Below, one piece after another: positions 1,216 through 64,000 of a DNA stretch of 64,000 nucleotides. The notes below the pieces were generated by a model. The model was not told the origin of the DNA. It made no database searches and saw only the letters and a program-made list of their open reading frames with translations. The DNA is taken from the sequence record KM190144, one strand, 5' to 3'. Both the position numbers and the translations under genes were made by a program. This DNA is from Escherichia phage Av-05. Within the stretch, counting starts at the first letter, position 1; every line of letters begins with the position of its first letter.

Positions 1216-1238
1216 TCTTTCCCCTTTTTCTCTACCAG

Positions 1239-1264
1239 AAAACCCTGCAAAGCAGGGTTTTGTT
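1239..1264 (-). terminator. Terminator-like hairpin between Cys-rich gene and HigA-like gene
   Basis: AACCCTGC-AAA-GCAGGGTT perfect stem at 1241-1259, T-rich flank. Confidence 0.4.
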
Positions 1265-1268
1265 ACTA

Positions 1269-1753: not shown

Positions 1754-2036
1754 TCAAAGACCTCGTCTCTTCAAACTGCTCTGGTGTCAATAAACTTGTT
1801 CCTACACGACTGCCATTACCACACATAATGGGCACGGCAATCATGTGGCTATCCTTTTCTGCATTACTTAAATCAAGGTACTGCCCATAACGTTTAATAA
1901 GTCGATGTTTCATTTTTGACTTAGCAAAAGCCCTCTCATTATAGAGATAATCCTCAAGGTACAAATGCATTGCGTTTGCGGATTTTAAGGATTTCGATAA
2001 GAATAATTTATTACGCCGTACCAGTTTTTTCTTCAT
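1731..2036 (-). CDS. Hypothetical small basic protein (paralog B)
   Basis: ATG with GAGGG RBS; N-terminus MKKKLVRRNKLFLSK. Confidence 0.4.
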   Translation of the reverse strand: MKKKLVRRNKLFLSKSLKSANAMHLYLEDYLYNERAFAKSKMKHRLIKRYGQYLDLSNAEKDSHMIAVPIMCGNGSRVGTSLLTPEQFEETRSLSEKEDYS

Positions 2037-2221
2037 GCAACCCTCGCTTGTGCCTGTACATTGCTAAGGGCCATACAGAACTCACTATAAAGCATTTCCA
2101 TGCCCAGCCCCATGCAGTTTTTGGTGCATATACCTGCTCAAGTATTTTACTATTCTCCATCTCTGCGGTATGTACAAACCATACAGCAATATACAATGTA
2201 ACTATAATGTAGATAAAGCCA

Positions 2222-3283: not shown

Positions 3284-3642
3284 TGTTGTACCTTTTTGTC
3301 TTTTCTTGCATTATCCCAAAAATTAAGGATATTTTGGTAACGGATTTTGTCTTCCATATATTCAGCTTCATCACGAAGACCACATACATGGTCTATTAAG
3401 GCACATACTTCATTATGGTATTCTGTGCCACTCGTGATGTGTTTAATCATACAAGATCCTGCTTTCCATTTCGAGAGGGAGTATCTCAGATTATCATCTT
3501 TTTCTGTGGGGAAAGCATCAACAAGCACCTTTGCTCTATTCCCTTGTATCGTTTGCACTGTTCCTCGGCGCAGTTCGTTATTACCCCAATAGATAAATAC
3601 TGTATCGCCAACAAATAATCTTGTTCCGCTTGCATCCCTCAT
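3280..3642 (-). CDS. Hypothetical protein
   Basis: ORF in track (3280-3660); GGGGG RBS before ATG at 3642. Confidence 0.4.
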   Translation of the reverse strand: MRDASGTRLFVGDTVFIYWGNNELRRGTVQTIQGNRAKVLVDAFPTEKDDNLRYSLSKWKAGSCMIKHITSGTEYHNEVCALIDHVCGLRDEAEYMEDKIRYQNILNFWDNARKDKKVQQ

Positions 3643-3643
3643 T

Positions 3644-3988
3644 TTATGCCCCCAACACAAAGAAATAATGAACTGTTACCGCTGCAAAGTAAAGCGTTTT
3701 GGAAATCAATCGTAGCCAGCAATCTCTGTTTGTATACACTTTTCCTGCTAAGATATTACTCCCTGTTACGATATTTCCCCACAGCCACACAACAAACAAG
3801 AATGCTCCGAGCAAACCACTTGTCGGTGGTGTTAATGTAGTAATCATCGCAATACCTTCGAGGGTGGCGAATATGAAGAAGTATGGAAATGCCTCCCTTA
3901 CACATTTTATTCCTTTGCCAGTAATGCAGGTATTAACTAAACCTATAAGACAAAATATCGTCCAAAGCACATACAATGTATAAACCAT
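3644..3988 (-). CDS. Membrane protein
   Basis: 114 aa, multiple hydrophobic segments. Confidence 0.4.
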   Translation of the reverse strand: MVYTLYVLWTIFCLIGLVNTCITGKGIKCVREAFPYFFIFATLEGIAMITTLTPPTSGLLGAFLFVVWLWGNIVTGSNILAGKVYTNRDCWLRLISKTLYFAAVTVHYFFVLGA

Positions 3989-4053
3989 AATCCACTTAAC
4001 CCCAAAAATGTTAACCTCTCCAAACCTATCAGAGAGGTTTCAAAAATAATCTA

Positions 4054-4551
4054 CTACTCACCTTTTAGCTTAAAACTTTTCAATGTTTTGATAAAGTCTT
4101 TCTCCGCTGGTGTGTAAGTGTGTACGAAACCTGTCTCTTCGCAGGTGTAGGTATCATTAACCTCCATTGCGTGTGGAGGGATAAATGCACCATCAGGAAC
4201 AGACTTATATTCCGGGTTGTAGATAAATTCCGGCAGCACAACAGCTACAGCAGTCATTGCCCCATTCAAGGCTTTCTTTTCTTCACGCCACCAAGCCACA
4301 GGGTAGGTTTGTAAAGACATTGCCTGATCAAGAAAATCTTCAAGCACGGACTGATAACCACCATTCAAAACAATAATGGTCTTATCTTCTTCTTTCCAGC
4401 ATTTCAGCCAATGGTGTGCAGTGATCTGCTCTGGTGTATATGCTTCACCACTATGCAAAACCATAAGCTCTGCAATGGCGTGTGCTGATTGGATACCTGC
4501 ATGGATACCGCAGATATACTGGTTAACAATACAATACATTCTTGTTTTCAT
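4054..4551 (-). CDS. PTH2-like (peptidyl-tRNA hydrolase 2 family) domain protein
   Basis: GIHAGIQSAHAIA and W..W...DKTIIVLNG resemble PTH2 core motifs (GKGKxAAQCSHAA; KVVLK); by-eye only. Confidence 0.35.
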   Translation of the reverse strand: MKTRMYCIVNQYICGIHAGIQSAHAIAELMVLHSGEAYTPEQITAHHWLKCWKEEDKTIIVLNGGYQSVLEDFLDQAMSLQTYPVAWWREEKKALNGAMTAVAVVLPEFIYNPEYKSVPDGAFIPPHAMEVNDTYTCEETGFVHTYTPAEKDFIKTLKSFKLKGE

Positions 4552-4766
4552 TTTTGTTTCTTCCTCAAAATTATCCGTTCAGGACTGAAAAATTCTTTCA
4601 AACACAGGAAGATGGCTAATGCGCCACCCAACCACCAAAAAGGTATCAACAGCAAAGCAGGTATTAAGTCCTCTCCTGTGATACAATCCTGTGTTTTATA
4701 GGTCATGGTAAGAAATACACCTGCTGCTACTATCCCAGCAACCACATACAAGATCAGTTCAATCAT
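4548..4766 (-). CDS. Small membrane protein
   Basis: 72 aa, two hydrophobic helices. Confidence 0.4.
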   Translation of the reverse strand: MIELILYVVAGIVAAGVFLTMTYKTQDCITGEDLIPALLLIPFWWLGGALAIFLCLKEFFSPERIILRKKQK

Positions 4767-5079
4767 TATCCCGTTTCTCCAGAAACGCTTTCACCGCAAG
4801 AGCCGCAGCGTAAATTGCCACAAGACAAATACAAAATGTGAAAATAATAGGTAAAACCATTACCGCAAACATCATAAACAGTGGTCCTGCAACAGTAACG
4901 AATGCTGTTCCAAGCAACAATAGAAATACCACATATTTATCTGCCGTCTCATCCACCTTCTTAAGATACACACCTAAACACACAGAAGACAACAGGAATG
5001 ACAGAATGGACAGCAATAGATACCAATTATCAATAAAGATGATAATTGGACCAGCAACATTTTCTAGCCACCACATCAT
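4759..5079 (-). CDS. Membrane protein
   Basis: 106 aa, strongly hydrophobic. Confidence 0.4.
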   Translation of the reverse strand: MMWWLENVAGPIIIFIDNWYLLLSILSFLLSSVCLGVYLKKVDETADKYVVFLLLLGTAFVTVAGPLFMMFAVMVLPIIFTFCICLVAIYAAALAVKAFLEKRDND

Positions 5080-5093
5080 ATATACTTACCTCT

Positions 5094-6350
5094 TTAGAAT
5101 AACATATCTCTGCTGATTGCTTTACGAATAGCATCAATACGGGCTACTCGCACAGCCTCACCAATCTCTTTACCCTTCTTACCTTTTTCCAGAAGGGGTT
5201 TTGTTATAGCTTTAGAATCAACTTTTGTCATAGCGTCGTAGGCTTCCAACAAAATATGACCCTGAGGATAAGGTTTATGTCTAAAATCACCACCTCTCCC
5301 TTTAGCATCACAATAACACGCATCTGCAAGTGTGTAAACCTTTATTTTCTGATCAGCTTGTCCAGCAGCTTCAAATATTTTCATGATGCTTTTTGGTTTC
5401 AAACCGTTGTTACCATCTTTGGGGGAGATGGCGTGCACTTTTGTGTGATTTTCCGCAACATATTTTGCCGTGTCACGATAGATATTATAAATCTTCAACC
5501 TTTCACACAAGGATTGGATAACATCTACACCAGCTTTTTCATGACCATGAAGATTACCATTGTCCTTATGAGTCACAGCTTTGCCAAAATCATGGCACAG
5601 CACAGCAAACTTGGTCAGTGGATCAGCTCCTAATTCATCAGCAACCCGTAACGCTAGAATTGTATGGGTGTAAGCATCCCCTTCTGGGTGATGTTCTTTA
5701 GGTTGTTGCACACCACGTAGGGCTTCCAGTTCAGGGAGTTCGCCAATACGTCCCATATTGACAGCAAAAGATCTGAAATAACCACTCTTTAAGGCTTTCA
5801 ACATTTCCTTCCATTTACGCTCGGCGCTTATTTCTGCCAAAGAGTGTCGGTTGTCATAAGCCAGTTTAAAAGTTTCTGGATGGATATGCCATTCTTCCCC
5901 AAGCTGGGCTTTAAATCTAAACAGGCGTAGAATACGTAATGGATCTTCAATAAATGCCTGTGATGTATGACGTAATGTTTTAAGTCCTAAGTCAACCTGA
6001 CCACCAAAAGGATCTATAATTTCACCACTCTCAACATCCATCGCCATGGAATTGATGGTTAGGTCTCTACGTGCCAAATCCTCTTCCAGAGTTACATCTG
6101 GACTAAAGCATACCTCAAATCCTTTATGGCCTTCACCTGTTTTTCTTTCTGTGCGTGCAAGAGCGTACTCTTCTCTTGTTTCTGGGTGAAGATAAACTGG
6201 AAAAGATGCGCCAACTTGTGTGAACCCTCTTTTCAACATCTCTTCATGCGTAGCACCAACAACCACATAATCACGGTCTGATATTTCACGACCTAACAAT
6301 TTATCTCTTACTGCGCCACCTACCAAGTATACCTTCATTTCTTCGCCCAC
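5094..6350 (-). CDS. cca: tRNA nucleotidyltransferase (CCA-adding enzyme) with HD domain
   Basis: MKVYLVGGAVRDKLLG...DRD head motif, RRDLTINS, HD motif HHPEGDAYTHT...CHDFGK; probable ATG at 6338 (track GTG 6350). Confidence 0.8.
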   Translation of the reverse strand: MGEEMKVYLVGGAVRDKLLGREISDRDYVVVGATHEEMLKRGFTQVGASFPVYLHPETREEYALARTERKTGEGHKGFEVCFSPDVTLEEDLARRDLTINSMAMDVESGEIIDPFGGQVDLGLKTLRHTSQAFIEDPLRILRLFRFKAQLGEEWHIHPETFKLAYDNRHSLAEISAERKWKEMLKALKSGYFRSFAVNMGRIGELPELEALRGVQQPKEHHPEGDAYTHTILALRVADELGADPLTKFAVLCHDFGKAVTHKDNGNLHGHEKAGVDVIQSLCERLKIYNIYRDTAKYVAENHTKVHAISPKDGNNGLKPKSIMKIFEAAGQADQKIKVYTLADACYCDAKGRGGDFRHKPYPQGHILLEAYDAMTKVDSKAITKPLLEKGKKGKEIGEAVRVARIDAIRKAISRDMLF

Positions 6351-6661
6351 GTATTCATATAATTAACAATATCTTTTACGGCTCTCTTTCCGTCTAGTGG
6401 ATAAACTATGTCATCGCTCATCCCACCGTGTTTTAGCATTGCTACCAGTCTAGTATATACCTCTTTTGGTCTTTTGCAAGTTCTTTTCTTCCATTTATGA
6501 CCGTCTGGGGAGTACTCCTTATCTTCAAGAGAGATATGAAGTATATCCCCTATAAACTCTTTAGCCTGTGTGCTGTAAAGTGGACGGTGGAATATGTAGA
6601 ATTTCATTGCTTGCTCCTTTGTTGTAATAACAATATCAGTGCAAGCCACCTGTGTCAACAC
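6335..6661 (-). CDS. Hypothetical protein
   Basis: ORF in track; overlaps cca start (coupled). Confidence 0.4.
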   Translation of the reverse strand: MLTQVACTDIVITTKEQAMKFYIFHRPLYSTQAKEFIGDILHISLEDKEYSPDGHKWKKRTCKRPKEVYTRLVAMLKHGGMSDDIVYPLDGKRAVKDIVNYMNTWAKK

Positions 6662-6696
6662 ATAAAGAAAAACCCGCTAAAAAGCGGGTTAATCTC

Positions 6697-6978
6697 TTAC
6701 CATGTTACAAATATGTTTATAGATGTGCCTTGTTTTGTTGGTTGATAGCTAATAATATCTACCGTGAAGCCACCACCACGAAGATCGCCAACAATATGAG
6801 GCAGGTAATCACCCATTTCCTCCGGGAACTGTAGTGACATACCCATTCCAAATAGACCTTTCTTTGCACACTGGCTGATCCCGTTTACTATCTGGTCGTA
6901 CAGTTCCACCAGAGATTTTGGGGTGTCCTTTTTCGACTTGTTCGCTATCTCTCTCATTTTGCTGGCGACATTTGCCAT
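6697..6978 (-). CDS. Hypothetical protein
   Basis: 93 aa; AGAGG RBS before ATG 6978; in-frame TAA immediately upstream. Confidence 0.45.
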   Translation of the reverse strand: MANVASKMREIANKSKKDTPKSLVELYDQIVNGISQCAKKGLFGMGMSLQFPEEMGDYLPHIVGDLRGGGFTVDIISYQPTKQGTSINIFVTW

Positions 6979-7489
6979 CTTTACCTCTTAAAAAATAGAA
7001 AGGCTTCAAATTAAGGGTGTTCTTTTTGTCCCACACATACCATGCATACCCGCTTCCATCTGTCTTACCATCATCTGTAAAAGATGGTCTTTGAGAAAGT
7101 ACAAGCAGAGATGTTGGAGGATTATCTTGCCACCACTCCCACCTTTTCATACTTTCAAGAAAACCAAGGCGTAGAAGCATGATAACGACATCAGCGTCAC
7201 GTAGAGCTTTCTCAACAAATTCCTGAGCCAGTGAGTATGGAGGGTTAGAGATTATGATGTCTGTGTGATTATACTCTGTTGCCAGATAATCAACACCTTG
7301 ACGTATTTCTCCCCAAGCACTTCCGATTGGTAGAAAATTATAAATCCTACCGGAAGCCCTGCACGGCTCCATATATTTCTTTTTCATATCTATGGGGATG
7401 ACTTCCAACAGGGCTTCAACAGCCCATACTGGGGTTTCATACGTATCGTATTCTCTCCGCTCACTCTTCCTTTTCAGGGGCGCTACCAT
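6809..7489 (-). CDS. Dam-like DNA N6-adenine methyltransferase (small phage type); 3' end probably artefactually extended
   Basis: DIIISNPPYS catalytic motif; removing one T from the T6 run at 6990-6995 gives a 166-aa protein ending ...KPFYF directly before the RBS of the next gene. Confidence 0.6.
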   Translation of the reverse strand: MVAPLKRKSERREYDTYETPVWAVEALLEVIPIDMKKKYMEPCRASGRIYNFLPIGSAWGEIRQGVDYLATEYNHTDIIISNPPYSLAQEFVEKALRDADVVIMLLRLGFLESMKRWEWWQDNPPTSLLVLSQRPSFTDDGKTDGSGYAWYVWDKKNTLNLKPFYFLRGKDGKCRQQNERDSEQVEKGHPKISGGTVRPDSKRDQPVCKERSIWNGYVTTVPGGNG

Positions 7490-8415
7490 CAGTTATTCAC
7501 CTTTTCCATAGCCTCTTTCAAAAGATCTTCTGAGACACCAAGAATCTGATTTAACAAAACGTCCCGCTTATGTGGTATTGTGCGTGTTTCACTTTCACCA
7601 TATCGTAGGCTATTCAGTTGCACAAGGATTCCTTTTAACTCCTCAACATTAAAACCGTCAAAATCACGTTCATTGAGTGTTAGCATATTGAAACTGAAAT
7701 TTTCACCCCCAATCGCTATATTTAGAGGCACTTCCTGTAGTTCATCTTCAGAAACAATATCTATATTTTGCAGTGCTACACTCTTCGACTTTGCAGGTTT
7801 TGTCGTTTTCGGTCCTGTTATATACTTCAGCCCTTGTTGCTCTCTTCGGATATTCTCTTTATCCAGTAAAGCGGCTTCTGTGCGTACCAAAATATCTTCT
7901 TCTGTCAGCCAAACTTCCCCACCACCTTTAATGGTTTCCATTTCTTCAGGTGTTAGCACATCTTTATAGAAATAATCGAAGACACGATCAAAGTAGTCTT
8001 TTTGGAACACAGCTTGGCGGTAAATATTGGATCCGTCTCCACCTATCCAACCCTGGTAGTTATGGAACATAAAAATTGTCAATGGTGAAACAGTTCTCCG
8101 CTCACATGCCAACCATAATACTGTTCCTGCTGAACACACTTGGCCTTCTGCATGAACAATAACCATGGCCTGACTTTCTCTGATGGCGCTAACGTATGCC
8201 ATAGCAATAGCAACATCCCCACCCAATGTATTTATAATAATGCGTACCGTATCCTCTGGGTTGGCTGCACGAATTGTTTGTAACCGCTCTTGGTGGTCTT
8301 CCAACCAATGCATCTCGTTAACGTACACGACATGATTATTGGCATAGGCACGATATGTGAAAACATTAGAAGTCTCTACACGGTTAATATCAAATCCGTT
8401 ATTCAGTTTTTGCAT
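7489..8415 (-). CDS. ClpP-like (S14 family) serine peptidase
   Basis: INTLGGDV...GQVCSAGTVLWLA...MFHNYQGW matches ClpP core with Ser and His motifs; extra N- and C-terminal extensions. Confidence 0.5.
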   Translation of the reverse strand: MQKLNNGFDINRVETSNVFTYRAYANNHVVYVNEMHWLEDHQERLQTIRAANPEDTVRIIINTLGGDVAIAMAYVSAIRESQAMVIVHAEGQVCSAGTVLWLACERRTVSPLTIFMFHNYQGWIGGDGSNIYRQAVFQKDYFDRVFDYFYKDVLTPEEMETIKGGGEVWLTEEDILVRTEAALLDKENIRREQQGLKYITGPKTTKPAKSKSVALQNIDIVSEDELQEVPLNIAIGGENFSFNMLTLNERDFDGFNVEELKGILVQLNSLRYGESETRTIPHKRDVLLNQILGVSEDLLKEAMEKVNN

Positions 8416-8896
8416 TACAAACCTCTTCGTTTTTAATGAGGATACCCCTCAGAATGTGACTATTGCTCAAAAGCCAATCTATATTTATACCGCACTCCTC
8501 GTCAACAATAACTTTGTCACTATATCTGGAGCACCGGATAACTCTACGCGCATACTCAGCCGCTATAGCTGCTTGATGTATGATTGTAAATATGTCAAGT
8601 TCATCTTTAGTAAGATGAATGAACTTAGATTTACCATTCATGCAGATGAGATGCTCTAGCAGCTCAATTCTGTTAGAGAACATCAATTCGGCATCCTTCT
8701 TAGCAGCACTTTCAGAATAAAACATACTAGCTAAGAGGCTTTTATTAACAACTCTTAAAGAATTAGCTACCGTGGTCATATATCTGTTATAAAGCTCAGT
8801 AGCCATCTCTTCAAACACGTCAGGCTCTACAACACCACAATTCTGTAACTTTACCAAGGTATCGTTTGTTAAGACACTGTAGACAGTATTTTTCAT
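8399..8896 (-). CDS. Hypothetical protein
   Basis: ORF in track, 165 aa. Confidence 0.4.
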   Translation of the reverse strand: MKNTVYSVLTNDTLVKLQNCGVVEPDVFEEMATELYNRYMTTVANSLRVVNKSLLASMFYSESAAKKDAELMFSNRIELLEHLICMNGKSKFIHLTKDELDIFTIIHQAAIAAEYARRVIRCSRYSDKVIVDEECGINIDWLLSNSHILRGILIKNEEVCNAKTE

Positions 8897-8902
8897 TGTC
8901 CC

Positions 8903-9211
8903 CTACCTAGCAATTAGATATTGTATCTTTCCGTCATCTTCCTGATACCCAACATCTACAACATAGTATTCCCCAACATCAGGAATCAACAACTTATCCC
9001 CAACCTCGTACTCTTTTGCGGTATGGTATACCATTGATTCTGTAAAATATTTGTACTTATCCATATCGTTAATGTTGCATGAGATTTCCATTTCTCCGTT
9101 GTTGTTGGGTATGAGAATATCCTCACCATTCTTTTTCCCAACCACATAACCACCTACCAATGTTTTAACTAAGCACAGTGTTTTATTGAGTTTGTCTTGG
9201 AACTTTGGCAA
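8903..9211 (-). CDS. Hypothetical protein
   Basis: ORF in track, 102 aa. Confidence 0.4.
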   Translation of the reverse strand: MPKFQDKLNKTLCLVKTLVGGYVVGKKNGEDILIPNNNGEMEISCNINDMDKYKYFTESMVYHTAKEYEVGDKLLIPDVGEYYVVDVGYQEDDGKIQYLIAR

Positions 9212-9728
9212 AAGAATCCTCCATTTTGTCCAGGAATGTTTCCAGGAGTTTTATTCTTTCTGGTGTGTTAAGATTAAGTGTTTTAATCCCTTTCATCTTA
9301 GCAAGATTGACAGCAGTAGCCGTGCCGCCTCTTGGATTGCCATTCTTATCTTCTTTTGCAAAGTAGAGCACAAAGGAAGATGGCTTTGGGTTGTTAATAT
9401 TCACTCCCAACACTTGATGCACATTCCTAGAATGCAACGCAAATGCTGATCTGTTTCTCAACAATGCTTGTGGGTTTGGATGCACCTTTTGCACCAACTC
9501 ATCTCGATATTCTATTTGGTCGATATATAGATGGTTAATATATTGTAAGGCATAATCCCAGTTATCGTACAAACCCACTTCTTTATCACCAAAACCTTTC
9601 CATGGTATGTAGATTTCTGCGAGTCTGTTACCATACAACATTTTGGTTTTATCGTCAAGGCCATCGAAATATCGCTGCATCCCTCTCTGGAACGCTGCAT
9701 CGGCTCCTTCTGCCTTACCGCTCCGCAA
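9183..9728 (-). CDS. Hypothetical protein
   Basis: TTG start; weak DprA/SLOG-like resemblance (GKAEGADAA, RNRSA) not relied on. Confidence 0.35.
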   Translation of the reverse strand: MRSGKAEGADAAFQRGMQRYFDGLDDKTKMLYGNRLAEIYIPWKGFGDKEVGLYDNWDYALQYINHLYIDQIEYRDELVQKVHPNPQALLRNRSAFALHSRNVHQVLGVNINNPKPSSFVLYFAKEDKNGNPRGGTATAVNLAKMKGIKTLNLNTPERIKLLETFLDKMEDSFAKVPRQTQ

Positions 9729-9762
9729 TGTAAACCCTATTTTTTTTTCAAGGAGTTAAGCA

Positions 9763-55686: not shown

Positions 55687-56991
55687 CTACTTACCAGGGA
55701 AAGTCTCTTCATAAAACTTAACAAGACGTTGATCAACGATAATATCTTTATCCCTGATCCTACGTAATAACCTTAATCCTTTTGCACTTGTTGCTCTGCT
55801 AAAAGCCACGTATGCCATGCCCGGTGCAAAAGTCCCATTGCCAAAGTCAACATTAACTTCCGGTAATGTTAATCCTTGTGCTTTGTGTATTGTAACAGCC
55901 CACCCAAGACGAATCGGTAAAGCCCTGTACTCACCAATGATAATCTTCTCAATTTCTTCAGTTATTGTACCATCTGGGTTTTTCACCTTTATGGGGTTAT
56001 ACTCAACATTTTCCCACACATAAGGTTCTACGTCAACAATATCCCCATTTTCAAGACGGACTCTAACACTGTACCTACGTAGTTCAACAATCTCTCCACG
56101 GGAACCATTCACATAGCTTGGTTCATTTAGTCCTTTAGGGTCATTGACAGTAATCATCACCTGCGCCCCCTCTTTCAGATACAACTCTTCCGGTACAGGT
56201 GTCTGGTTAAATTGCCCTGTCTTTTTTGCCTTGTAAACTGTTGGGATTCCAGGTATTGCATCAAAACGTTTTTTGTTTATTTTGTCTGCTGCCGCGTTTG
56301 TTGAGGTTATTGTTATAGCATCCAAGGGTTTTCCCATGTTGTAGCAATAAGTATTCATAAACTCAACAATCTCTGGAATACGCTCTCCCTTGCGAAGGCA
56401 ATTAAGAAGTGTTGAAAAATGAACACTACTTTGCCTGTATATTTTATCAAGAAATACAGGATATGGGTTCAATTCTTTCCATGTTTTAGAAAAGCAACAA
56501 AGTTCTGTGTCGTGGAACTGGTAGTAGATCTCTTTTTCTTCACCTTTCAAAACAGGTGGATTCTGTAAGAAATCCCCGAACATGCACACCTGCAAACCAC
56601 CGAAAGGCTCTTTAGGTTTTTTACGTGCCAGACGACATTTCATGTCCATTTCCCAAAGTTTGTCTGCCCTGAACATACTTATCTCTTCAATAATAAGAAT
56701 CTTCAGTGCTTTACTTTTAAGCAACTTCTTAGCCTTTGCCTTTATCTCTTCTGCATCTTTTTTAGTGGACACGCCTAATGAAAGTCCGAAAGCTCTGTGT
56801 GCCGTCATACCATCCACATTAATGGCAGCAGCCCCTGTAGGGGCCACTGTCAAGACTGAACCTGCGTATAAGGATTGGATAGTTTTTATGGTATGGCTCT
56901 TTCCAGCACCTGCATAACCACTGATAAACACATTTTCACCGGACATTATAGCGCCAAGAGCATCTTCAACGCCAACCCCGTATTGAGACAT
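55687..56991 (-). CDS. Dda/RecD-like SF1 DNA helicase
   Basis: Walker A ISGYAGAGKS, VLTVAPTGAAA, Walker B IIEEISM, TIHKAQGLT and AYVAFSRA motifs. Confidence 0.7.
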   Translation of the reverse strand: MSQYGVGVEDALGAIMSGENVFISGYAGAGKSHTIKTIQSLYAGSVLTVAPTGAAAINVDGMTAHRAFGLSLGVSTKKDAEEIKAKAKKLLKSKALKILIIEEISMFRADKLWEMDMKCRLARKKPKEPFGGLQVCMFGDFLQNPPVLKGEEKEIYYQFHDTELCCFSKTWKELNPYPVFLDKIYRQSSVHFSTLLNCLRKGERIPEIVEFMNTYCYNMGKPLDAITITSTNAAADKINKKRFDAIPGIPTVYKAKKTGQFNQTPVPEELYLKEGAQVMITVNDPKGLNEPSYVNGSRGEIVELRRYSVRVRLENGDIVDVEPYVWENVEYNPIKVKNPDGTITEEIEKIIIGEYRALPIRLGWAVTIHKAQGLTLPEVNVDFGNGTFAPGMAYVAFSRATSAKGLRLLRRIRDKDIIVDQRLVKFYEETFPGK

Positions 56992-58004
56992 CAGTCCTCC
57001 TTAGATTCTTGTAGATAAATCTCTTCAAGAATTTTACCCTGTACACCAATGACAATAATATCTGGCGCACCTGCTGGTTTTGGTGTTCCTGTCAGAACTT
57101 CATAACGACAGCAACGGCATTTTTTCTGGTTATAGTCATAAGGGACACTGACAATATCTGCCGGATCCACAGATACTTCTACAAGTACCCTTGAAGTCTT
57201 CTCAAAGGTAGTGGCATAGTCAATAGATGCAACATGCAAACCTTGGCTACATGTTCTATTGGGATTATCCTCAACCATATTACGTGGCATGGAAATAACT
57301 TGCCCTTTATAATTAGGAACTTTACCTGTATGACAATCTCGTGGGCCATCTACAGTTATCTTAATTTTCTTGTATGCCTTAATATTTCCGTTTTCAAGGA
57401 TCTCAAGATCATTATGTTTTACAAAATCATAAAGCATTTTAACAGAAGCATACGACGGGTTGTGTAGCAACTTCTGCATGAATTTGACATATCGTTCGTC
57501 AAAGCAATCATTCTCAATATCTTTAATGATTCGTTTAGCAATACTGCTTTCCTGTTTTTGCCCGTGCCAATACAAAACACCATCTATCAATACTAAATTA
57601 TCACCAAAATCAATGGTCTTTTTCTTTTCTGCTTCTTTCTCTTCTAAAATACGTTGTACAGCAGCATCTATTCCTCCTGTCCAAAGGATAACACCAACTT
57701 CTTTGAAGATGGGGCTGCTACTATTTAGAGTATATTGTTCACCATTTAACAAAGTGATATGAATATTGTCTTGGGTAACAAGGACAATTGGTTGTGCAAG
57801 AGAATGCACTGGCTTCATAATACCTACAGGATCTTCCTTGGCCTTTTTGGTTGTCGGCATTCCTTTTTTGGGTGCAACTGTCCAGCGTTTAAGAACATTT
57901 AGACCACGATCAACAACCATCATATTATTTTTCTTAGCGTATTCACGAGCTTCACGACGTGACATGAATAAAGGATTACTCACCTTTTCCTCCTTTGCTG
58001 TCAA
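56991..58004 (-). CDS. rIIB: rIIB-like protein
   Basis: Immediately downstream of rIIA-like gene; C-terminal MPRNMVEDNPNRTCSQGLHV...DPADIVSVPYDYNQKKCRCCRYEV resembles rIIB conserved C-terminus as recalled. Confidence 0.45.
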   Translation of the reverse strand: MTAKEEKVSNPLFMSRREAREYAKKNNMMVVDRGLNVLKRWTVAPKKGMPTTKKAKEDPVGIMKPVHSLAQPIVLVTQDNIHITLLNGEQYTLNSSSPIFKEVGVILWTGGIDAAVQRILEEKEAEKKKTIDFGDNLVLIDGVLYWHGQKQESSIAKRIIKDIENDCFDERYVKFMQKLLHNPSYASVKMLYDFVKHNDLEILENGNIKAYKKIKITVDGPRDCHTGKVPNYKGQVISMPRNMVEDNPNRTCSQGLHVASIDYATTFEKTSRVLVEVSVDPADIVSVPYDYNQKKCRCCRYEVLTGTPKPAGAPDIIVIGVQGKILEEIYLQESKED

Positions 58005-59976
58005 TAAATTTACGATACTCTAGCATCTCTGGAGTATTGAAATGCCTAATATTAATGTATTTTAACAATGGGTAGCGATCTTTCTTAATTTGTAGCAGCT
58101 TTTTACCAATTCTCTTCTTGGCCTCTATCATCCATAATGCTTTCTCACGGCTATCTTCGTAGCCAGGAACTGAACAATAACTGGGCATGTTTACCTTCAT
58201 CTCCCATTTTGGGAAACTGGCTACCATCACACCAAAATAGCTAAGCTCTTTAACAATGTTATGATACTCATGATCTTTCCCCACTTCTTGATATAAATGA
58301 TATTCAAGAAGGTTAGTTTTTGCAAGAGCATGAATATCCTCCTCAGTTATAACCCGTGCCTCATCTGGCAGCCAACTTGATCTGTTTAAAGGCACAATGT
58401 ATAACTTACCTGCCACACCAAGATGTTTAAGAAATGTTGGTGGTTGCTTTCTCCAAGTTGTTCTAAGATTGGAAACGTATCCTAACGGGCATAATCCTTT
58501 CACCTGCCCACCCCAGTAGACCATAGCCGCCTCAATATCTTCAAATTGAGCACGGGAAATACGGGTTACATCTACGGAGCCATCTTGGTTGATTATCCAA
58601 ACTTTATGACCCGGTTCGTAATAACCATAGCCACCATACTTTTTATCTGCTTTTTGCACTGGTCGTTTTTCAAGTTCAGATAACTTGAAAATCATCCCTT
58701 CAAAGAATTTATCACTGTATAAGGACAGAGCGTAATCAGCATCGGTTATAAACGATCTCTTACCGAACTTCTCTGCAAGCCAGTTACATTTAGAACGCAC
58801 ATACTTGCGATCATCATTGTAAACCAGTGGATGACCATTCATCAACTCTGCGTATGAATAACGCTCATCCTTACCACGGCGTGAGCCTTCGCCACCATAT
58901 GTTTCACAGTAATCTATGTAAGAACCATCAGTATAATTCTTGAATTTATTTGCAATAAAAGCAGCACCGTATTTTGTGGCGAAGTAACCGCCAATAAACT
59001 TCATATGATCAAGGACTGCTTTTAAAGTTGGCAGATCGCTTAATTCTTTTGTGATTTCTTCTCCGCGAAGTCGGATAGCTTTCGTCACAAAACTTTCAAG
59101 TTTATCACGGAATCCTCCGTCATTCTTTCCTTCTACTGTCCATTCTCGGCCTGGGTCTACATTACAATCCCCAATAGGGATAGATACCGTCATCATGGGC
59201 AGTTCTTTACGAGTCGAGAGATAATCAGAAAGATATGGTTGCTGACCCATGATAACAACACTATCCGCGTTTCTTGAAATGCTACTATACATCTCAAGAA
59301 CCCAGCCAGTCTCCTCATCCTCATAACGATACTGAACAGGATAAGTGCGATCTTCAATCTGAGTTTTAACAAAAGGATCGTTAATGATATATGGAAATTT
59401 AGCATAGCGAAGGCATTTTACAATAGCCAGCCGATAAGCTCCTGTTTCCCAAGTGTTTACGTTAAATTTAACCTCTACACCATTCTCCTCTGTTGTTTCA
59501 CAAGAGAATAAAGGCACAACCTCTGGGATTCCACTGTTTTTATGGACAGAGTATGTTGTTTTCACTCCATCTTTAACAGAAATAACTGTGAACATATCTG
59601 TTACTGCAAGAGGCGCTTTTGACCCAATACCTTTCGCGCCAATCAGATCATTACTGTTTCTTTTTGTGGACTCACCAATCATCATGAATGTACGTGTTAC
59701 CATCTCATGATCCATACCTAACCCTGTATCCTTAACAGAATACCAAGGTTCCAAGTCTGTTGGTGAGTGGATGATGATGGGTTTGTCAGAACACCCTGCC
59801 TCTGTGTGAGCATCTACAGCGTTGAAGAGAGGCTCTCGTACTGCTGCTAAAGGTTTATCTTTATAAATTCCATCGATAAGAATACTGAAAGTCTCAGGAT
59901 TCATTGCAATTGATGCTTGGTATCTTTCTACGTTCCCAGTTACCTGAACTTTGTTGTCAGATCTTTGAATAATCAT
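57976..59976 (-). CDS. rIIA: rIIA-like protein (N-terminal GHKL ATPase-like domain)
   Basis: N-box AVREPLFNAVDAH, G1 VKDTGLGM, G2 GAKGIGSKA. Confidence 0.55.
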   Translation of the reverse strand: MIIQRSDNKVQVTGNVERYQASIAMNPETFSILIDGIYKDKPLAAVREPLFNAVDAHTEAGCSDKPIIIHSPTDLEPWYSVKDTGLGMDHEMVTRTFMMIGESTKRNSNDLIGAKGIGSKAPLAVTDMFTVISVKDGVKTTYSVHKNSGIPEVVPLFSCETTEENGVEVKFNVNTWETGAYRLAIVKCLRYAKFPYIINDPFVKTQIEDRTYPVQYRYEDEETGWVLEMYSSISRNADSVVIMGQQPYLSDYLSTRKELPMMTVSIPIGDCNVDPGREWTVEGKNDGGFRDKLESFVTKAIRLRGEEITKELSDLPTLKAVLDHMKFIGGYFATKYGAAFIANKFKNYTDGSYIDYCETYGGEGSRRGKDERYSYAELMNGHPLVYNDDRKYVRSKCNWLAEKFGKRSFITDADYALSLYSDKFFEGMIFKLSELEKRPVQKADKKYGGYGYYEPGHKVWIINQDGSVDVTRISRAQFEDIEAAMVYWGGQVKGLCPLGYVSNLRTTWRKQPPTFLKHLGVAGKLYIVPLNRSSWLPDEARVITEEDIHALAKTNLLEYHLYQEVGKDHEYHNIVKELSYFGVMVASFPKWEMKVNMPSYCSVPGYEDSREKALWMIEAKKRIGKKLLQIKKDRYPLLKYINIRHFNTPEMLEYRKFIDSKGGKGE

Positions 59977-59996
59977 TCAATACCTCTATGAACTAA

Positions 59997-60515
59997 TTAT
60001 GCGTCAGGATGCTTGTAAAAAATATGATTCCCAACCTTCACTGTTCTCACCATAACTTTTGTCCAAGATGGTCTAACAGTAGTTGCATGATAGTACGTTG
60101 CTGATTTTGTGTAGTCAAGAGCTTTGTATAAACTTTTGTGGTCTTTATGCAATCTCATCAAGATTTTAGCATAAAATTTAGCCCTCAACCATCTATCCTT
60201 TTCATAAACTTTAAAGGATTGCCCACCGAATGTCCAAGAGAATTGCCCTCGCTGATAAACTACTTTCTTGATAGTACGAGGGAAATTTTTGTCATCCTTT
60301 CTGTTCAGCGTGGCAAACGCGACACCCATCATTCCATAATCGCCTTCACCTCTTCCTTCTTTATACATATTACAGGCAAGAATATTAAGCTCTGTATCAT
60401 TCTTCTTGCAAATGTGAAGAACTCTGGGCTTCTTTGCACTTTCTTTGGCTAGAACAGGAGTAATAGACAGAGAAAGTGCACAGCAAACTGCAAATAATAA
60501 AGATCTTATTTTCAA
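59997..60515 (-). CDS. SleB-like cell wall hydrolase (Hydrolase_2 family) with signal peptide
   Basis: LACNMYKEGRGEGDYGMMGVAFATLNR and YQRGQFSW motifs; probable TTG start at 60515 with GGAG RBS gives MKIRSLLFAVCCALSLSITPVLA signal peptide; track ATG 60542 lies in a hairpin. Confidence 0.5.
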   Translation of the reverse strand: MKIRSLLFAVCCALSLSITPVLAKESAKKPRVLHICKKNDTELNILACNMYKEGRGEGDYGMMGVAFATLNRKDDKNFPRTIKKVVYQRGQFSWTFGGQSFKVYEKDRWLRAKFYAKILMRLHKDHKSLYKALDYTKSATYYHATTVRPSWTKVMVRTVKVGNHIFYKHPDA

Positions 60516-60534
60516 AACTAACTCCAGACAAATA

Positions 60535-60551
60535 AGCCCCATGAAGGGGCT
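60535..60551 (-). terminator. Terminator-like hairpin after 60557-60901
   Basis: Minus strand AAGCCCC-TTCAT-GGGGCTT then ATTTGT; weak U-tract. Confidence 0.35.
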
Positions 60552-60556
60552 TCTTG

Positions 60557-60901
60557 TTAACGATGGGTAATATCTCCAGATATTGTGTTCACACTACCAT
60601 GGATCGTATTTGCGCAAACATCACCAGACACCGAAGACACATTGCCTAAAATATCTTTTTCAACATTAATATCCCCAGATGTTGAGATCACACCATTAGA
60701 GACATTTCCATAAACATTGATACCACCTGATGTTGTGCGTACCTCTTTAGCATCACCTTTGATAATAACTGTGATGTTTTTATCGTTTGTGGTGTGAACT
60801 AAATCACCATTGATATATACATTATCACCCTTAGTAGTGATAGAGATACTACCATTGGTATAGTTTCCAGAAATTGTATTGCCGTTAATTGTAATCATTG
60901 T
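60557..60901 (-). CDS. Beta-helical repeat protein (bactofilin-like repeats)
   Basis: Repeats of G(N/D)xxVxGxV/I (ITINGNTISGNYTNGSISITTKGDNVYINGD...); start taken at MITINGN. Confidence 0.35.
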   Translation of the reverse strand, partial: TMITINGNTISGNYTNGSISITTKGDNVYINGDLVHTTNDKNITVIIKGDAKEVRTTSGGINVYGNVSNGVISTSGDINVEKDILGNVSSVSGDVCANTIHGSVNTISGDITHR

Positions 60902-61070
60902 TTTGTTTCTCTTTAACAATATGTGCTTTCTGAACAGAGTATACAAATGTTTTATTGTCTTCAATAAACTCTCTGCCCTGTTCTTCATTCTCAAAAATAA
61001 TTGTGTCACACTTTGCCTTTAACATACCACGTTCTACAGTTGTGTGTGTCGTAGAAACAATTAAAGCCAT
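60885..61070 (-). CDS. Small hypothetical protein
   Basis: ORF in track, 61 aa. Confidence 0.35.
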   Translation of the reverse strand: MALIVSTTHTTVERGMLKAKCDTIIFENEEQGREFIEDNKTFVYSVQKAHIVKEKQNNDYN

Positions 61071-62110
61071 TAAGACACCTCGTTAAGTTGTTCCATGTAC
61101 CAGCTACGGGCTTTATTTGTTGTAAATTTTGCCACGTCTTTCATAGAAAGAGAATTGGCTTCTAGCACATCAGCTTCTTCTTTGTTGATATCTCGGTTAA
61201 CCCATGCGATAAATGCCCCCAGAGATGCGATGTCCAATCCAATCTCTTGCAAACCTTGTTGCAAGCGGTTCTCGGTGACTGCATACTCCACAAAATCTTT
61301 GATAGATTGCAGTTTCACAGGATCAACAAAGGCTAGGGTTTTCACTTTAGAGACAGAATGTTTTTGCCCTTTCACTTTAAACCAAAGTGCAGAAACATGT
61401 GCCAAGTGGCGATCTTTAGGTGTCCATACCACACCCTCACCAACACCAGATACACCAAAATATTTACCTACTGGGCACTCTTTTTCCACACCTTCGGTGA
61501 TCTGTGCAATTTCTGATTGCACTGTCTCTGGCATGTTAAAAGGAATATCCAGTTCCCACTTACCAAAAGTTAAAATATTATAAATGCGTTGTTCTGGTAA
61601 TCCAATGCCAAGAATATCGTCTAAAGCTAACCATTTTCGATGGTCATTCTCTTTTCCTACTGCCACACGGAAAATAGTAAAGAAAGGCATGATTTCAGAT
61701 ACCGCAACACCTTTCTGGATACCTTTTCCTGAAAATTCTCCAGCAATTTCTACTGGGAACTTAAATTCAATACCCCGATCTTCGCAGAGTTGCTTAACTT
61801 GCTCCAACAGGAGCTTATGGTCCTTTTCAACCATAAAGGCCATAAACCCATAATTGTCTTCTTCCAAAGACAAAACGCGTTCTTTGGACTGGTATACAAC
61901 CTCATCTTCAGAATTAAAGACTACACGGCAATTAGTCCCGTGAATTTTAACTGTTCCCACATAAGGAATGAGATATTGGTCTGGAGAGGCAACCTTACGC
62001 TTTATATTGCCATTCTCATCACGACCATCATAGGTTAAACGATCATGAATCGCTCGGATAACATTGCGAAATTGGCTAGTGCTTGGATACTTAGTTACTT
62101 GCATTATCAT
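61070..62110 (-). CDS. RNA ligase (T4 Rnl2-like)
   Basis: Motif I KIHGTN, motif III-like GEFSGKGIQKGV, motif IV EGVVW, motif V WFKVKG. Confidence 0.6.
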   Translation of the reverse strand: MIMQVTKYPSTSQFRNVIRAIHDRLTYDGRDENGNIKRKVASPDQYLIPYVGTVKIHGTNCRVVFNSEDEVVYQSKERVLSLEEDNYGFMAFMVEKDHKLLLEQVKQLCEDRGIEFKFPVEIAGEFSGKGIQKGVAVSEIMPFFTIFRVAVGKENDHRKWLALDDILGIGLPEQRIYNILTFGKWELDIPFNMPETVQSEIAQITEGVEKECPVGKYFGVSGVGEGVVWTPKDRHLAHVSALWFKVKGQKHSVSKVKTLAFVDPVKLQSIKDFVEYAVTENRLQQGLQEIGLDIASLGAFIAWVNRDINKEEADVLEANSLSMKDVAKFTTNKARSWYMEQLNEVS

Positions 62111-62477
62111 CTTCCTTATTAATAAAAGTCACACCAAGAGTTGCCTGGGCAAGAAGTTTCGTGATCTCCTGGCTCCATACAGGACTGGAGATAAAATGTT
62201 GTAATTGGAGGCTACCTAAGCGATAGGCACTGTTCATCGTAATAGCATAGATTTCTCCATCGTGCAGGATCAGACTTTCGACAACAGAAGTCCTGATATT
62301 AGAACCACTAAATCCACGCTTTTTGAGGTCATCTGCTAAGTATCCACAAATGCATCGAACATCTTTTGTATAACCAAAACCGAAATAGGGTTCAGCACCG
62401 AACAGGATACCAGCGTATCTCTTCCCACAGACATAGGTATCTTTAGATATGCCTGTTACAGATTTACTTTCCATCAT
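62091..62477 (-). CDS. Hypothetical protein
   Basis: ORF in track, 128 aa. Confidence 0.4.
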   Translation of the reverse strand: MMESKSVTGISKDTYVCGKRYAGILFGAEPYFGFGYTKDVRCICGYLADDLKKRGFSGSNIRTSVVESLILHDGEIYAITMNSAYRLGSLQLQHFISSPVWSQEITKLLAQATLGVTFINKEDDNASN

Positions 62478-62677
62478 TGGCCCTCCACATCGTCAATATC
62501 TTCCATACCATCTTGCCACAGAACTTCATAGCAAGCGTCATAAATTGCGCTCATAGCATCTTTACGATCTAACACATCTACAATTTTTGGATCAATACTT
62601 TTAATTGCTTCCGCAATTTTATCGTAAGCAATATCAGGATGCATGTTCTTTTTTGCCATCTGGGATCTCCTCTTCAT
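62474..62677 (-). CDS. Small acidic hypothetical protein
   Basis: ORF in track, 67 aa. Confidence 0.35.
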   Translation of the reverse strand: MKRRSQMAKKNMHPDIAYDKIAEAIKSIDPKIVDVLDRKDAMSAIYDACYEVLWQDGMEDIDDVEGQ

Positions 62678-63242
62678 TTAAGACATAAATTGTCACATCA
62701 CAATCATGGAGAACAGATTCTATCATAGTTTCTATGATTTTCCAATCCCCACCTGCTAGTCCAGCACCTATTTTTGGCAGCCCGATCTTATAATCAGACA
62801 TAAAACCATCTGTGTGCCTTTGCAAACAATCTCGCATTGCTGCTAAGGAATCGTAAAGGGCGTTATAATTCAGATCCCTCACACCCATTCTACGCCCATT
62901 ATAACCGTATTGTGTGTACAGATTAAAACCAGCCAGTTTACCTTCGTTCATGACAACCCAAGTATAACTGCCCAGTTTTGTTCGATCACCTTTCTCTGTC
63001 TTTAAATCTTCAGCATACATTTTTGGGAATGCATTCTTTATTTCTTTAGCAATTCCAGACCCCATGGTGCAAAATGTATTACAACCATGAGCTATTACAT
63101 TAACATCCCTTTTAAGTGCTGCCTCTATTAAGCAACCAACTTTATACTTAAGCATTGTCTGATACCTCTTCGCATTCGTATGGATAGATATCCAGTCTTT
63201 TCCCATTCCATTCGCAAGAGTAACACTCAAGAAAACTACCAT
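62634..63242 (-). CDS. Macro-domain-like protein (ADP-ribose binding/processing fold)
   Basis: VNVIAHGCNTFCTMGSGIAKEI and KIGLPKIGAGLAGGDW resemble the two glycine-rich macro domain loops. Confidence 0.45.
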   Translation of the reverse strand: MVVFLSVTLANGMGKDWISIHTNAKRYQTMLKYKVGCLIEAALKRDVNVIAHGCNTFCTMGSGIAKEIKNAFPKMYAEDLKTEKGDRTKLGSYTWVVMNEGKLAGFNLYTQYGYNGRRMGVRDLNYNALYDSLAAMRDCLQRHTDGFMSDYKIGLPKIGAGLAGGDWKIIETMIESVLHDCDVTIYVLNEEEIPDGKKEHAS

Positions 63243-63330
63243 TAAATATTTCTTCTCTTACTTCAAGAATATCTCCTGTTTTTGGATATCCATCAACATC
63301 CGAAAAATCAGAAATCATTTTAACCTTCAT
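63148..63330 (-). CDS. Small hypothetical protein
   Basis: ORF in track; GAAAGGAG RBS. Confidence 0.4.
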   Translation of the reverse strand: MKVKMISDFSDVDGYPKTGDILEVREEIFNGSFLECYSCEWNGKRLDIYPYECEEVSDNA

Positions 63331-63502
63331 TCACAACTCCTTTCAAGGAAGGCATTCATACTTTCCAATGCCTCGCTTTTATTTTTAGCACAAACAACAA
63401 ACACACGCTTATTTTTATAGGTGTATCCTGCCATGACCATATCGGATCTTTCAATCCACCATTTCTCATGTAGCTGGTCTTTCTTAAATTTATGTTTTGC
63501 CA
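63327..63502 (-). CDS. Small hypothetical protein (58 aa, below track cutoff)
   Basis: ATG at 63502 to TGA at 63327 (MAKHKFKKDQ...); stop overlaps next start (ATGA). Confidence 0.3.
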
Positions 63503-63919
63503 TCAACGATTATACCATACCACATGTGTGGCCCAGTCTGGTTTTTTATCCCATACTGAAACGTCAGATTCATAGCTATCGTTAGGACACCAGTATCCGT
63601 TCCCATCTTCAGGGCTGAAAATCGCAGCTAGGACACCAAAATTCCAATCATCAAGATCCATCACCTTAGCCCCAGCGGTCTTAAAATTAGCCTCTGTTTT
63701 AAGATGATCTTTCAGAAAATCACTGATAGATGGAATTGGCATGTAAGCAATAACAGGTTCAAAATCAAAGTAGAAAGACCCATTGATGACATGAATAATA
63801 CAGTTATTGCCTTGATAGGATTCACAAATGCCAATCTTACCATCTGCCAAGACGACAAGCCATCTACCAACATCAAGATCTTCAACACCATTGGGAGTTT
63901 TTATCCACACATCATTCAT
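63503..63919 (-). CDS. Hypothetical protein
   Basis: ORF in track, 138 aa. Confidence 0.4.
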   Translation of the reverse strand: MNDVWIKTPNGVEDLDVGRWLVVLADGKIGICESYQGNNCIIHVINGSFYFDFEPVIAYMPIPSISDFLKDHLKTEANFKTAGAKVMDLDDWNFGVLAAIFSPEDGNGYWCPNDSYESDVSVWDKKPDWATHVVWYNR

Positions 63920-64000
63920 TTAGGTATTCCTAGGAAAAGCAGCCATTAGGCTGCTGCTATTAATTTAAAATTGCATCTACATCTTTTGCAAAGTTCTTGT

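Follow-up and report, generated by a model that had tools for sequence, protein, structure and literature searches.

A 64,000-nucleotide stretch of Escherichia phage Av-05 (sequence record KM190144; hereafter the window) encodes on its minus strand an Rnl2-like ATP-dependent RNA ligase (61070..62110) and a stand-alone macrodomain protein of 173 amino acids that belongs to the phage Tk.4/Adpp family (62634..63155). The source phage is a member of the Vequintavirinae, within the rV5/PVP-SE1 group, and we consider it likely that these are two separate accessory genes sharing a tightly packed, leftward and probably early transcription unit. A preliminary description of the region had read their proximity as a sign of an RNA-repair or a de-ADP-ribosylation counter-defence function; counter-defence is supported for the macro protein by its homologues, while a joint function of the pair is not, adjacency of the two genes being found at about the rate expected by chance.

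Adjacency was surveyed at 80 viral-contig loci anchored on each gene by applying family hidden Markov models to six-frame open reading frames (ORFs) within 10 kb on each side. The ligase family was detected within 10 kb of the macro gene at 13 of the 80 macro-anchored loci and the macro family within 10 kb of the ligase at 14 of the 80 ligase-anchored loci. Twelve co-located loci in each set were the same Vequintavirinae contigs, and the remainder were two Thalassavirus contigs and one contig in which the genes lie 7.5 kb apart. Following dereplication of the loci at 70% identity, co-location was retained in 4/32 macro lineages and 3/48 ligase lineages, matching the ~6% expected by chance, a figure that is a rough estimate and not a test and that takes two genes to fall within 10 kb of each other in ~15% of 130-kb genomes. 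Across the phage collection the macro family was represented by 2,734 records and the ligase family by 152. Conserved adjacency of the two families was rejected as a general feature, having been seen only in the Vequintavirinae lineage, in Thalassavirus and in one other contig. The two genes lie 47 kb apart in T4 (tk.4 and rnlB) and ~64 kb apart in one 141-kb contig (L042/L096), and at three phiTE-type loci (L015-L017) the macro gene and a cell-wall hydrolase gene are kept, with neither a ligase nor either of the two small genes located immediately after it in the window found within 10 kb of the macro gene.

Where the pair does occur, its spacing varies. The macro gene had been placed two genes away from the ligase, and two small genes do separate them here; one lies between them in Mydovirus and six in Salmonella phage PVP-SE1. 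The PVP-SE1 genes gp232 ('phosphatase, similar to Tk.4') and gp239 ('RnlB RNA ligase 2') are orthologues of the window pair, each with 67% identity, that keep its order and orientation and already bear these names in GenBank and RefSeq; PVP-SE1 differs from the window in the six small intervening genes and in an HNH endonuclease gene located just upstream of the macro gene. A Sir2 gene apparently situated between macro and ligase in Klebsiella phage vB_Kpn_K23PH08C2 (locus L002, OY757067.1) was discarded, tblastn showing that the feature table is out of register. At this locus tblastn located the ligase ORF at 6986-8005, where the table places 'Sir2' and 'ATPase', and the table assigns 'RNA ligase' to 8286-9344; nearly all features are flagged as pseudogene or partial, and the annotation of L002 should not be used for gene context.

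The company kept by each family was analysed by clustering the ORFs within 6 kb of each anchor, and the recurrent neighbours of the two families differ. Outside the Vequintavirinae, the genes found repeatedly near the ligase encode an Rnl1-type ligase, an ATP-dependent DNA ligase, a calcineurin-like phosphoesterase and an HD phosphohydrolase (HD_4), whereas the macro family is accompanied by Nampt-like, Prs-like, SIR2, NadM-Nudix and NADAR proteins and by a HAD 'Swiss-army-knife' phosphatase (HAD_SAK). Both neighbourhoods fit the picture drawn by Iyer et al., in which early phage regions mix ADP-ribose-processing and RNA-repair genes (PMC9503650). Thus, because adjacency is confined to few lineages at about the chance rate, phiTE has no ligase within 10 kb of its macro gene, the two genes are unlinked in T4, and the neighbours of the two families differ, the pairing is most likely an inherited gene order in one lineage rather than a functional module.

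In distant phages, represented by metagenomic contigs of which many exceed 200 kb, macro genes of this family occupy a conserved island with NADAR immediately beside them (L030, L031, L043, L055-L057, L063, L066-L069, L071 and L075-L078), and the HAD 'Swiss-army-knife' phosphatase, SIR2, Nampt-like, Prs-like and NadM-Nudix genes of this island lie within ~5 kb. The NADAR–macro pair mirrors the two known anti-DarT enzyme types, AdfN and AdfM.

Turning to the macro protein itself, the preliminary description had rightly recognized a gene here and assigned it to 62634-63242, a span that is too long at its 5′ end. Initiation at 63242 would give a 202-codon ORF running 87 nucleotides into the upstream 60-codon gene in another frame, and no ribosome-binding site precedes it. 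The ATG at 63155 lies behind AAGAGG, and this ATG and the upstream stop codon overlap as ATGCTTAA; it is also the start annotated in the related Escherichia phage TH18, and the closest database homologues are 173 residues long. Because the TH18 start, the homologue length and the ribosome-binding site agree, and the extension overlaps the 60-codon gene, we take 63155 as the true start.

The macrodomain assignment that had been made from two glycine-rich loops holds, the loops being TMGSGIA (residues 30-36) and IGAGLAGG (residues 129-136). The protein narrowly passes the Pfam Macro family (PF01661; E 5.5e-5, 23.5 bits against a cut-off of 22), and its AlphaFold2 model (mean predicted local distance difference test score, pLDDT, 94.2) retrieves macrodomains with Foldseek at probability 1.00, the best being TARG1 (9e-11), followed by BT1257, DarG and Poa1p. 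A profile built from 34 homologues and searched against the PDB identified BT1257 (1e-20), SCO6735 (1.3e-18), TARG1 (7e-15), Poa1p (3e-12) and DarG (6e-10). From the predicted structure we are confident of a macro fold of the TARG1/DarG/Poa1p/SCO6735 ('ALC1-like') class.

Residues invariant in the family are H23, N26, G34-I35-A36, D50, T53, K60, G62 and N78, together with Y80, Q82, P127, G130, G132, G136 and W138. In the profile alignment Q82 corresponds to SCO6735 Q85 and N26 to SCO6735 N27, so that the predicted active site comprises Asn26 and Gln82, with glutamine in place of lysine. The protein consequently fails the TARG1/DarG catalytic type, the invariant Gln82 occupying the position of the lysine TARG1 K84/DarG K80; in the TARG1 alignment the position of D125 is an alanine. 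Its sole NCBIfam match, the DarG antitoxin NF048014 (E 3.8e-10, 39.6 bits against a cut-off of 250), is confined to the macro part (profile positions 9-153/338), and the protein is not a DarG, which requires a C-terminal DarT-binding domain. The closest solved structures by profile search, SCO6735 of Streptomyces coelicolor (PDB 5E3B) and BT1257 of Bacteroides (2AFC/2FG1), also carry glutamine instead of lysine in the active site, and in SCO6735 the Q85A substitution abolishes removal of thymidine-linked ADP-ribose from DNA (PMC9411070). Both are cellular proteins, unlike the phage macro; SCO6735 additionally has a longer mobile loop with DNA-binding lysines, and BT1257 has no assigned function.

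Two phage members of the family have been linked to host defences. T4 Tk.4 aligns with the macro protein over its full length (36% identity; BLASTP E 5e-25; hhalign probability 99.9%), and is similarly stand-alone and of similar size, sharing every residue that is invariant in the family, those of HGCN, TMGSG, GD..KLG, FNLYTQ and P.IGAG...G.W among them; it differs in coming from another phage family and in having tk and vs as neighbours instead of a ligase gene. Genetic evidence in a preprint singles out tk.4 as the sole gene that T4 requires on a host with DarTG2, and its product was named AdfM (bioRxiv 10.1101/2025.11.20.689424). Adpp (gp182) of Vibrio phage Gary likewise aligns with the macro protein at 36% identity over its full length (E 4e-29) and has the same invariant residues. 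Adpp is the ADP-ribose-1′′-phosphate phosphatase of NARP1-AP, is encoded between Adps and Namat in one operon, and enables reconstitution of NAD+ to overcome the RES-type system aRES, examples of which were cloned from E. coli and Klebsiella (bioRxiv 10.64898/2026.01.28.702374). In contrast to Gary Adpp, the window macro has no NAD+ genes nearby, and the NARP1-like pair of TH18 is located 68 kb from the macro gene. The gene order in Gary is an Rnl1-like gene, four genes, Adps-Adpp-Namat, four further genes and an Rnl2-like ligase; in this respect Gary resembles the window phage, with a member of the same ligase family 3.4 kb downstream of Adpp. The DUF7390 gene that flanks the ligase in Thalassavirus gave no tblastn match near the window ligase. 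Because of its homology to Tk.4/AdfM (anti-DarTG2) and to Adpp (anti-aRES), a counter-defence role for the macro protein is supported, and de-ADP-ribosylation counter-defence appears to be its best reading. By analogy with these relatives, it is likely to act on ADP-ribose-1′′-phosphate, on DarT2-modified DNA, or on both.

The ligase gene encodes 346 residues from its first ATG; the likely start is the third codon (62104), giving 344 residues as annotated in TH18. It had been described as Rnl2-like with motifs I, III, IV and V, which is borne out by matches to Pfam RNA_ligase (PF09414; E 1.1e-9) and to PHROG 548 'RNA ligase' (E 3e-72), by invariant residues and by alignment with T4 Rnl2. There are ~2,500 homologues in the database, and an alignment of 33 of them showed as invariant the motif I sequence GTVKxHGTN (K55, H57), motif Ia R78, motif III GE(W/F)xG (E125), motif IIIa F147, motif IV GEG (E225-G226) and motif V K245/K247, as well as T279, R282, W303, D307 and K310-E311-E312 in the C-terminal part. 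Alignment of the ligase with T4 Rnl2 by hhalign (96.6% probability, 275 columns) extended from motif I to the last helix, covering Rnl2 residues 31-332/334, and paired the catalytic residues (T4 Rnl2/window ligase) K35/K55, R55/R78, E99/E125, F119/F147, E204/E225, K225/K245 and K227/K247, and in the C-terminal domain R266/R282 and D292/D307.

The AlphaFold2 model of the ligase (pLDDT 91) is all-helical across residues 264-345, and the fold is predicted to consist of an N-terminal nucleotidyltransferase domain followed by an all-helical C-terminal domain. The top three Foldseek matches were full-length T4 Rnl2 (E 4.5e-12), ranking above the N-terminal fragment of Rnl2, and the runners-up (Naegleria, archaeal and Rnl1 ligases) were weaker by about six orders of magnitude. 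T4 Rnl2 (rnlB/24.1; PDB 2HVQ, 2HVR and 1S68) is thus the best match in both sequence and predicted structure, having the same two-domain architecture with matching catalytic and C-domain residues; the window ligase differs from it in sharing only ~23% identity over the aligned columns, in having ~20 more residues ahead of motif I, and in its gene neighbourhood. It passes the tests for an Rnl2-type enzyme, namely the nucleotidyltransferase motifs with the KxHGxN lysine and the Rnl2-specific helical C-terminal domain, but falls below the curated equivalog cut-off of its sole NCBIfam match, TIGR02307 Rnl2 (positions 27-314/326). Because the TIGR02307 score of 36.3 bits lies far under the cut-off of 197, 'Rnl2-like' is the accurate label, denoting a divergent subfamily and not an Rnl2 equivalog.

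Several homologues of the ligase are longer than the window protein. Two (P0152 and P0153; 55-57% identity) have an N-terminal calcineurin-like phosphoesterase domain of ~190 residues, a fusion that from its domain composition appears to be a natural end-healing and sealing enzyme. In four others (P0159, P0171, P0176 and P0227), among them that of Acinetobacter phage ABPH49, ~105-150 unassigned residues extend the N-terminus, and a Pseudaeromonas phage record (H106) annotates an intein-containing version.

In the mechanism that we infer, including the substrates of both enzymes in this phage, the ligase would be adenylylated at Lys55 by ATP and would pass the AMP to a 5′-phosphate, sealing a 3′-OH/5′-phosphate break while its Rnl2-type C-terminal domain grips the duplex around the nick; it would form part of the RNA-repair set of the phage. 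The macro protein would hold ADP-ribose between its two glycine-rich loops and cleave the group at C1′′ of the distal ribose via the SCO6735-type Asn26/Gln82 site. By one route, ADP-ribose-1′′-phosphate produced by RES-type NADases would be converted to ADP-ribose, usable by phage enzymes of NAD+ reconstitution, as for Adpp; by the other, ADP-ribose added by DarT2 would be stripped from thymine in single-stranded phage DNA, as for Tk.4/AdfM. The presence of both enzymes in one early gene block would reflect descent.

An alternative in which macro and ligase constitute one RNA-repair module appears improbable. In one version of it, the macro protein would clear the ADP-ribose derivatives of RNA end-healing, for example ADP-ribose-1′′-phosphate from Tpt1/KptA-like or sirtuin-driven removal of 2′-phosphates; in another, it would take ADP-ribose caps off 5′-phosphorylated RNA ends, which the ligase would then seal. 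TARG1-class macrodomains remove ADP-ribose from phosphorylated RNA ends in vitro. A module would also suit the overlap and common orientation of the genes, the recurrence of their proximity in Thalassavirus, and the occurrence of the macro family near SIR2 and HAD 'Swiss-army-knife' RNA-repair phosphatases in distant phages, and TH18 carries a Sir2-Rnl1-phosphoesterase cluster that has been proposed as an RNA-end-cleaning system (PMC9503650). However, sealing of the Rnl2 type yields no ADP-ribose product for a macrodomain to process, and scans of ORFs of at least ~60 residues in the window, which is about half of the genome, revealed neither Tpt1/KptA nor a 2H enzyme. Rnl2-type ligases join a 3′-OH to a 5′-phosphate with ATP, without making any ADP-ribose derivative. 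The adjacency in few lineages at about the chance rate, the phiTE arrangement of a macro gene with no ligase within 10 kb, and the lack of linkage in T4 argue in the same direction, and both studied members of the macro family act on products of DNA defence and NAD+ defence rather than on RNA. Less probable still is a 'de-cap and seal' pathway, in which the Gln-type macro would free 5′-phosphorylated RNA ends, or RNA modified by an ADP-ribosylating toxin of the host, of ADP-ribose and the ligase would seal the regenerated end; if true, it would represent a two-enzyme RNA repair against ADP-ribosylating defences, and the closeness of macro and ligase in Vequintavirinae and Thalassavirus would be selected and not accidental.

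The other alternatives leave the genes separate and narrow the macro protein to a single substrate. It may be specifically an Adpp-type ADP-ribose-1′′-phosphate phosphatase that works in trans with NARP1 genes located elsewhere in the phage genome against RES-type NAD+ phosphorylases and not against DarT, although we hold this restricted form to be doubtful. The match to Gary Adpp is slightly better than that to Tk.4 (92 against 82 bits); His23 and Thr30 of the macro protein fall at the positions of Poa1p His23/Ser30, a reading of the alignment that assumes a three-residue numbering offset, and PDB entries 6lfs and 6lft contain Poa1p mutated at these positions. Adjacent Nampt-like and Prs-like genes are present in TH18, NARP1-adjacent macros are interspersed with the clade of the window macro in a distance tree, and aRES is known from E. 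coli and Klebsiella. Against an Adpp-only function, the macro gene lies outside any NARP1 operon here, the TH18 pair being 68 kb away; T4 retains a member of the family and requires it against DarTG2; and the Gln-type active site was shown in SCO6735 to cleave thymidine-linked ADP-ribose. To our knowledge, T4 is without NARP1. Tentative to the same degree is the converse proposal that the macro protein is specifically an AdfM-type DNA ADP-ribosylglycohydrolase, removing DarT2 marks from phage DNA with no part in NAD+ metabolism. Here the full-length homology to T4 Tk.4/AdfM, the DarG macro domain as the sole NCBIfam match, the equivalence of Asn26/Gln82 with the catalytic pair of SCO6735 and the stand-alone position outside NAD+ operons, as in T4, all speak in favour, as does NADAR, the other anti-DarT enzyme type, directly adjoining family members at 16 distant loci. 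Yet the case for T4 consists solely of genetic data from a preprint, the window macro is no nearer to Tk.4 than to Adpp, and the chimallivirus AdfM for which activity on DNA was demonstrated carries a DarG-type lysine and not a glutamine (PMC13309987). ICP1 AdfB was considered as a related case and set aside as irrelevant, as it is not a macrodomain.

Several observations weigh against the interpretation that we favour, two accessory genes with separate functions and a macro protein acting in counter-defence. The chance estimate takes a macro gene to be present in ~40% of large myoviruses (Iyer et al. 2022, PMC9503650) and genes to be placed at random, and the survey behind the comparison covered 10 kb on either side of each gene rather than whole genomes. 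Proximity of the macro gene to this ligase family also occurs in Thalassavirus, an unrelated phage family, at 3.4-4.4 kb, and so recurs at least twice; in the window, the overlap and probable co-transcription of the four genes would be in keeping with a shared role. The macro protein stands at equal distance from Tk.4 and Adpp, and in a crude distance tree it groups with neither; macros adjoining Nampt-like/Prs-like genes are scattered around its clade. NARP1 genes were not detected in the window, either by tblastn with divergent Prs-like and Nampt-like queries (no match below E 0.01) or by Pfam scans of ORFs. Finally, no biochemical work on any member of the ligase subfamily emerged from literature searches.

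The genomic setting of the pair was established by comparison with related phages. TH18 (vB_EcoM_TH18, ON075799.1, Vequintavirinae) and three other Escherichia phage records have 95% DNA identity to window positions 60500-64000, and PVP-SE1, 4MG, Klebsiella Mydovirus phages, Cronobacter phages and others have 65-70%; in the latter records the pair is usually labelled 'RNA ligase 2' and 'putative phosphatase'. In order of transcription, the region consists entirely of minus-strand genes encoding proteins of 138, 59 and 60 residues, the macro protein, proteins of 61-67 and 128 residues, the ligase, proteins of 61 and 150 residues and, last of those listed, a cell-wall hydrolase (59997-60542). 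Consecutive genes of the block overlap by 4 to 26 nucleotides with a Shine-Dalgarno-like sequence at each start, and the macro gene, the 61-67-codon gene, the 128-codon gene and the ligase gene all overlap or abut. A scan of 59500-64000 for promoters and terminators found sites no commoner than in shuffled sequence, and operon boundaries were not revealed. Because the genes overlap, their starts carry Shine-Dalgarno-like sequences and promoters or terminators show no excess over shuffled sequence, the block is probably one transcript, like most of the 28-kb leftward arm.

The small genes around the pair were characterized in the same way. The 128-codon gene of unassigned function (62091..62477, minus strand), whose stop overlaps the ligase start by 14-20 nucleotides, matches PHROG 16099 (E 1e-60, labelled 'methyltransferase') and has no Pfam or NCBIfam match; it is found in Seunavirus and Erwinia relatives, is absent from Mydovirus-type loci, and stands beside the macro gene with no ligase nearby in two of the three phiTE-type loci (L016 and L017). 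The other intervening gene, also of unassigned function, is a 67-codon ORF (62474..62677, minus strand) with a likely start at 62659 (61 codons) behind the ribosome-binding site GAGGAG; its match to PHROG 35483 (E 4e-41) begins at residue 7. It shares 26 nucleotides with the 3′ end of the macro gene, its stop overlaps the next start as ATGA, and it is unannotated in TH18 and conserved in L002 and L011. Upstream of the macro gene, the 60-codon gene (63148..63330, minus strand) overlaps the macro start by 8 nucleotides at its 3′ end, has a GGAG ribosome-binding site, matches PHROG 14198 (E 1e-32) and is annotated in TH18; it is preceded by the 59-codon gene (63327-63506, minus strand). PHROG or RefSeq names for the 128-, 60- and 59-residue proteins are 'methyltransferase', 'exonuclease' and 'baseplate wedge subunit', respectively. 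Because all three look too small for the named functions and have no Pfam match, these names are probably propagated mis-annotations. In comparison with TH18, the ratio of nonsynonymous to synonymous differences (pN/pS) was 0.08 for the 60-codon gene; because the corresponding values are low for the ligase (0.10), the macro gene (0.06) and the 128-codon gene (0.10), these three are under purifying selection.

Elsewhere in the window, three consecutive minus-strand genes (55687-59976) encode proteins of 666, 337 and 434 residues. The 666-residue protein has GHKL-ATPase motifs at its N-terminus (NAVDAH and DTGLGMD), and a Pfam HATPase_c_3 match occurs somewhere within the window; the 337-residue protein has no Pfam match; and the 434-residue protein, named 'DNA helicase' in TH18, is the probable source of the PIF1-like helicase match of the window. 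The window is not collinear with TH18, its closest relative: window 491-9739 corresponds to TH18 98564-107833, and window 9740-64000 to TH18 58383-6747, reversed. Either a ~49-kb inversion or a different assembly of one of the two genomes would fit this arrangement; the junction at 9739/9740 lies in a divergent intergenic region of the window.

Other genes of RNA repair and NAD+ metabolism were sought in the window, which represents about half of the genome. Pfam scans of ORFs of at least ~60 residues found no Tpt1/KptA, 2H, PNK, SIR2 or NADAR protein, and Pfam scans of ORFs found no ADP-ribosyltransferase in the window. Genes for Rnl1, DNA ligase and metallophosphoesterase were searched for and none was found in the window, several being present elsewhere in TH18, and ARAGORN found no tRNA genes in the window. 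The macro gene is neither in nor next to an Adps-Namat operon. The window does contain, ~55 kb from the ligase, an RlaP ('RNA ligase-associated Pol-beta') nucleotidyltransferase (2222-3283, minus strand; PF10127 E 5e-13) and a multifunctional CCA-adding/repair enzyme with an HD domain (5094-6350, minus strand; NF008137 E 4e-127, 424 bits against a cut-off of 451). In TH18 (ON075799.1; L167 and L168), the adjacent Nampt-like/Prs-like pair, which is NARP1-like, lies at 76396-78984, 68 kb from the macro gene, and a cluster of DNA ligase, Sir2, small genes, Rnl1-like and metallophosphoesterase genes occupies 128774-133311 at the right end of the linear record. If the ends of the TH18 record are joined, this Sir2-Rnl1 cluster is only ~9-13 kb from the Rnl2-like ligase. 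Iyer et al. propose Sir2 as a KptA analogue and the Sir2-Rnl1-phosphoesterase cluster as an NAD+-dependent RNA-end-cleaning system (PMC9503650).

Both gene identities were already known, orthologues having been annotated essentially so as early as PVP-SE1, and the finding has little importance beyond annotation. Within that scope, the 'putative phosphatase' or 'hypothetical protein' of rV5/PVP-SE1-like phages is now interpretable as a probable counter-defence enzyme; the link of two macro-family members to counter-defence dates only from 2025-2026 (DarTG2 and aRES). Phages of this group are used in phage therapy and biocontrol, and such a reading of the macro protein helps to predict which host defences they may overcome. 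The recurrent company of the ligase (Rnl1, DNA ligase and phosphoesterases, including fusions) indicates where its true partners may be sought. For the macro family, the Asn/Gln active site that its members have in common with SCO6735 raises the question of whether one macro protein may serve both the DNA-repair and the NAD+-salvage routes.

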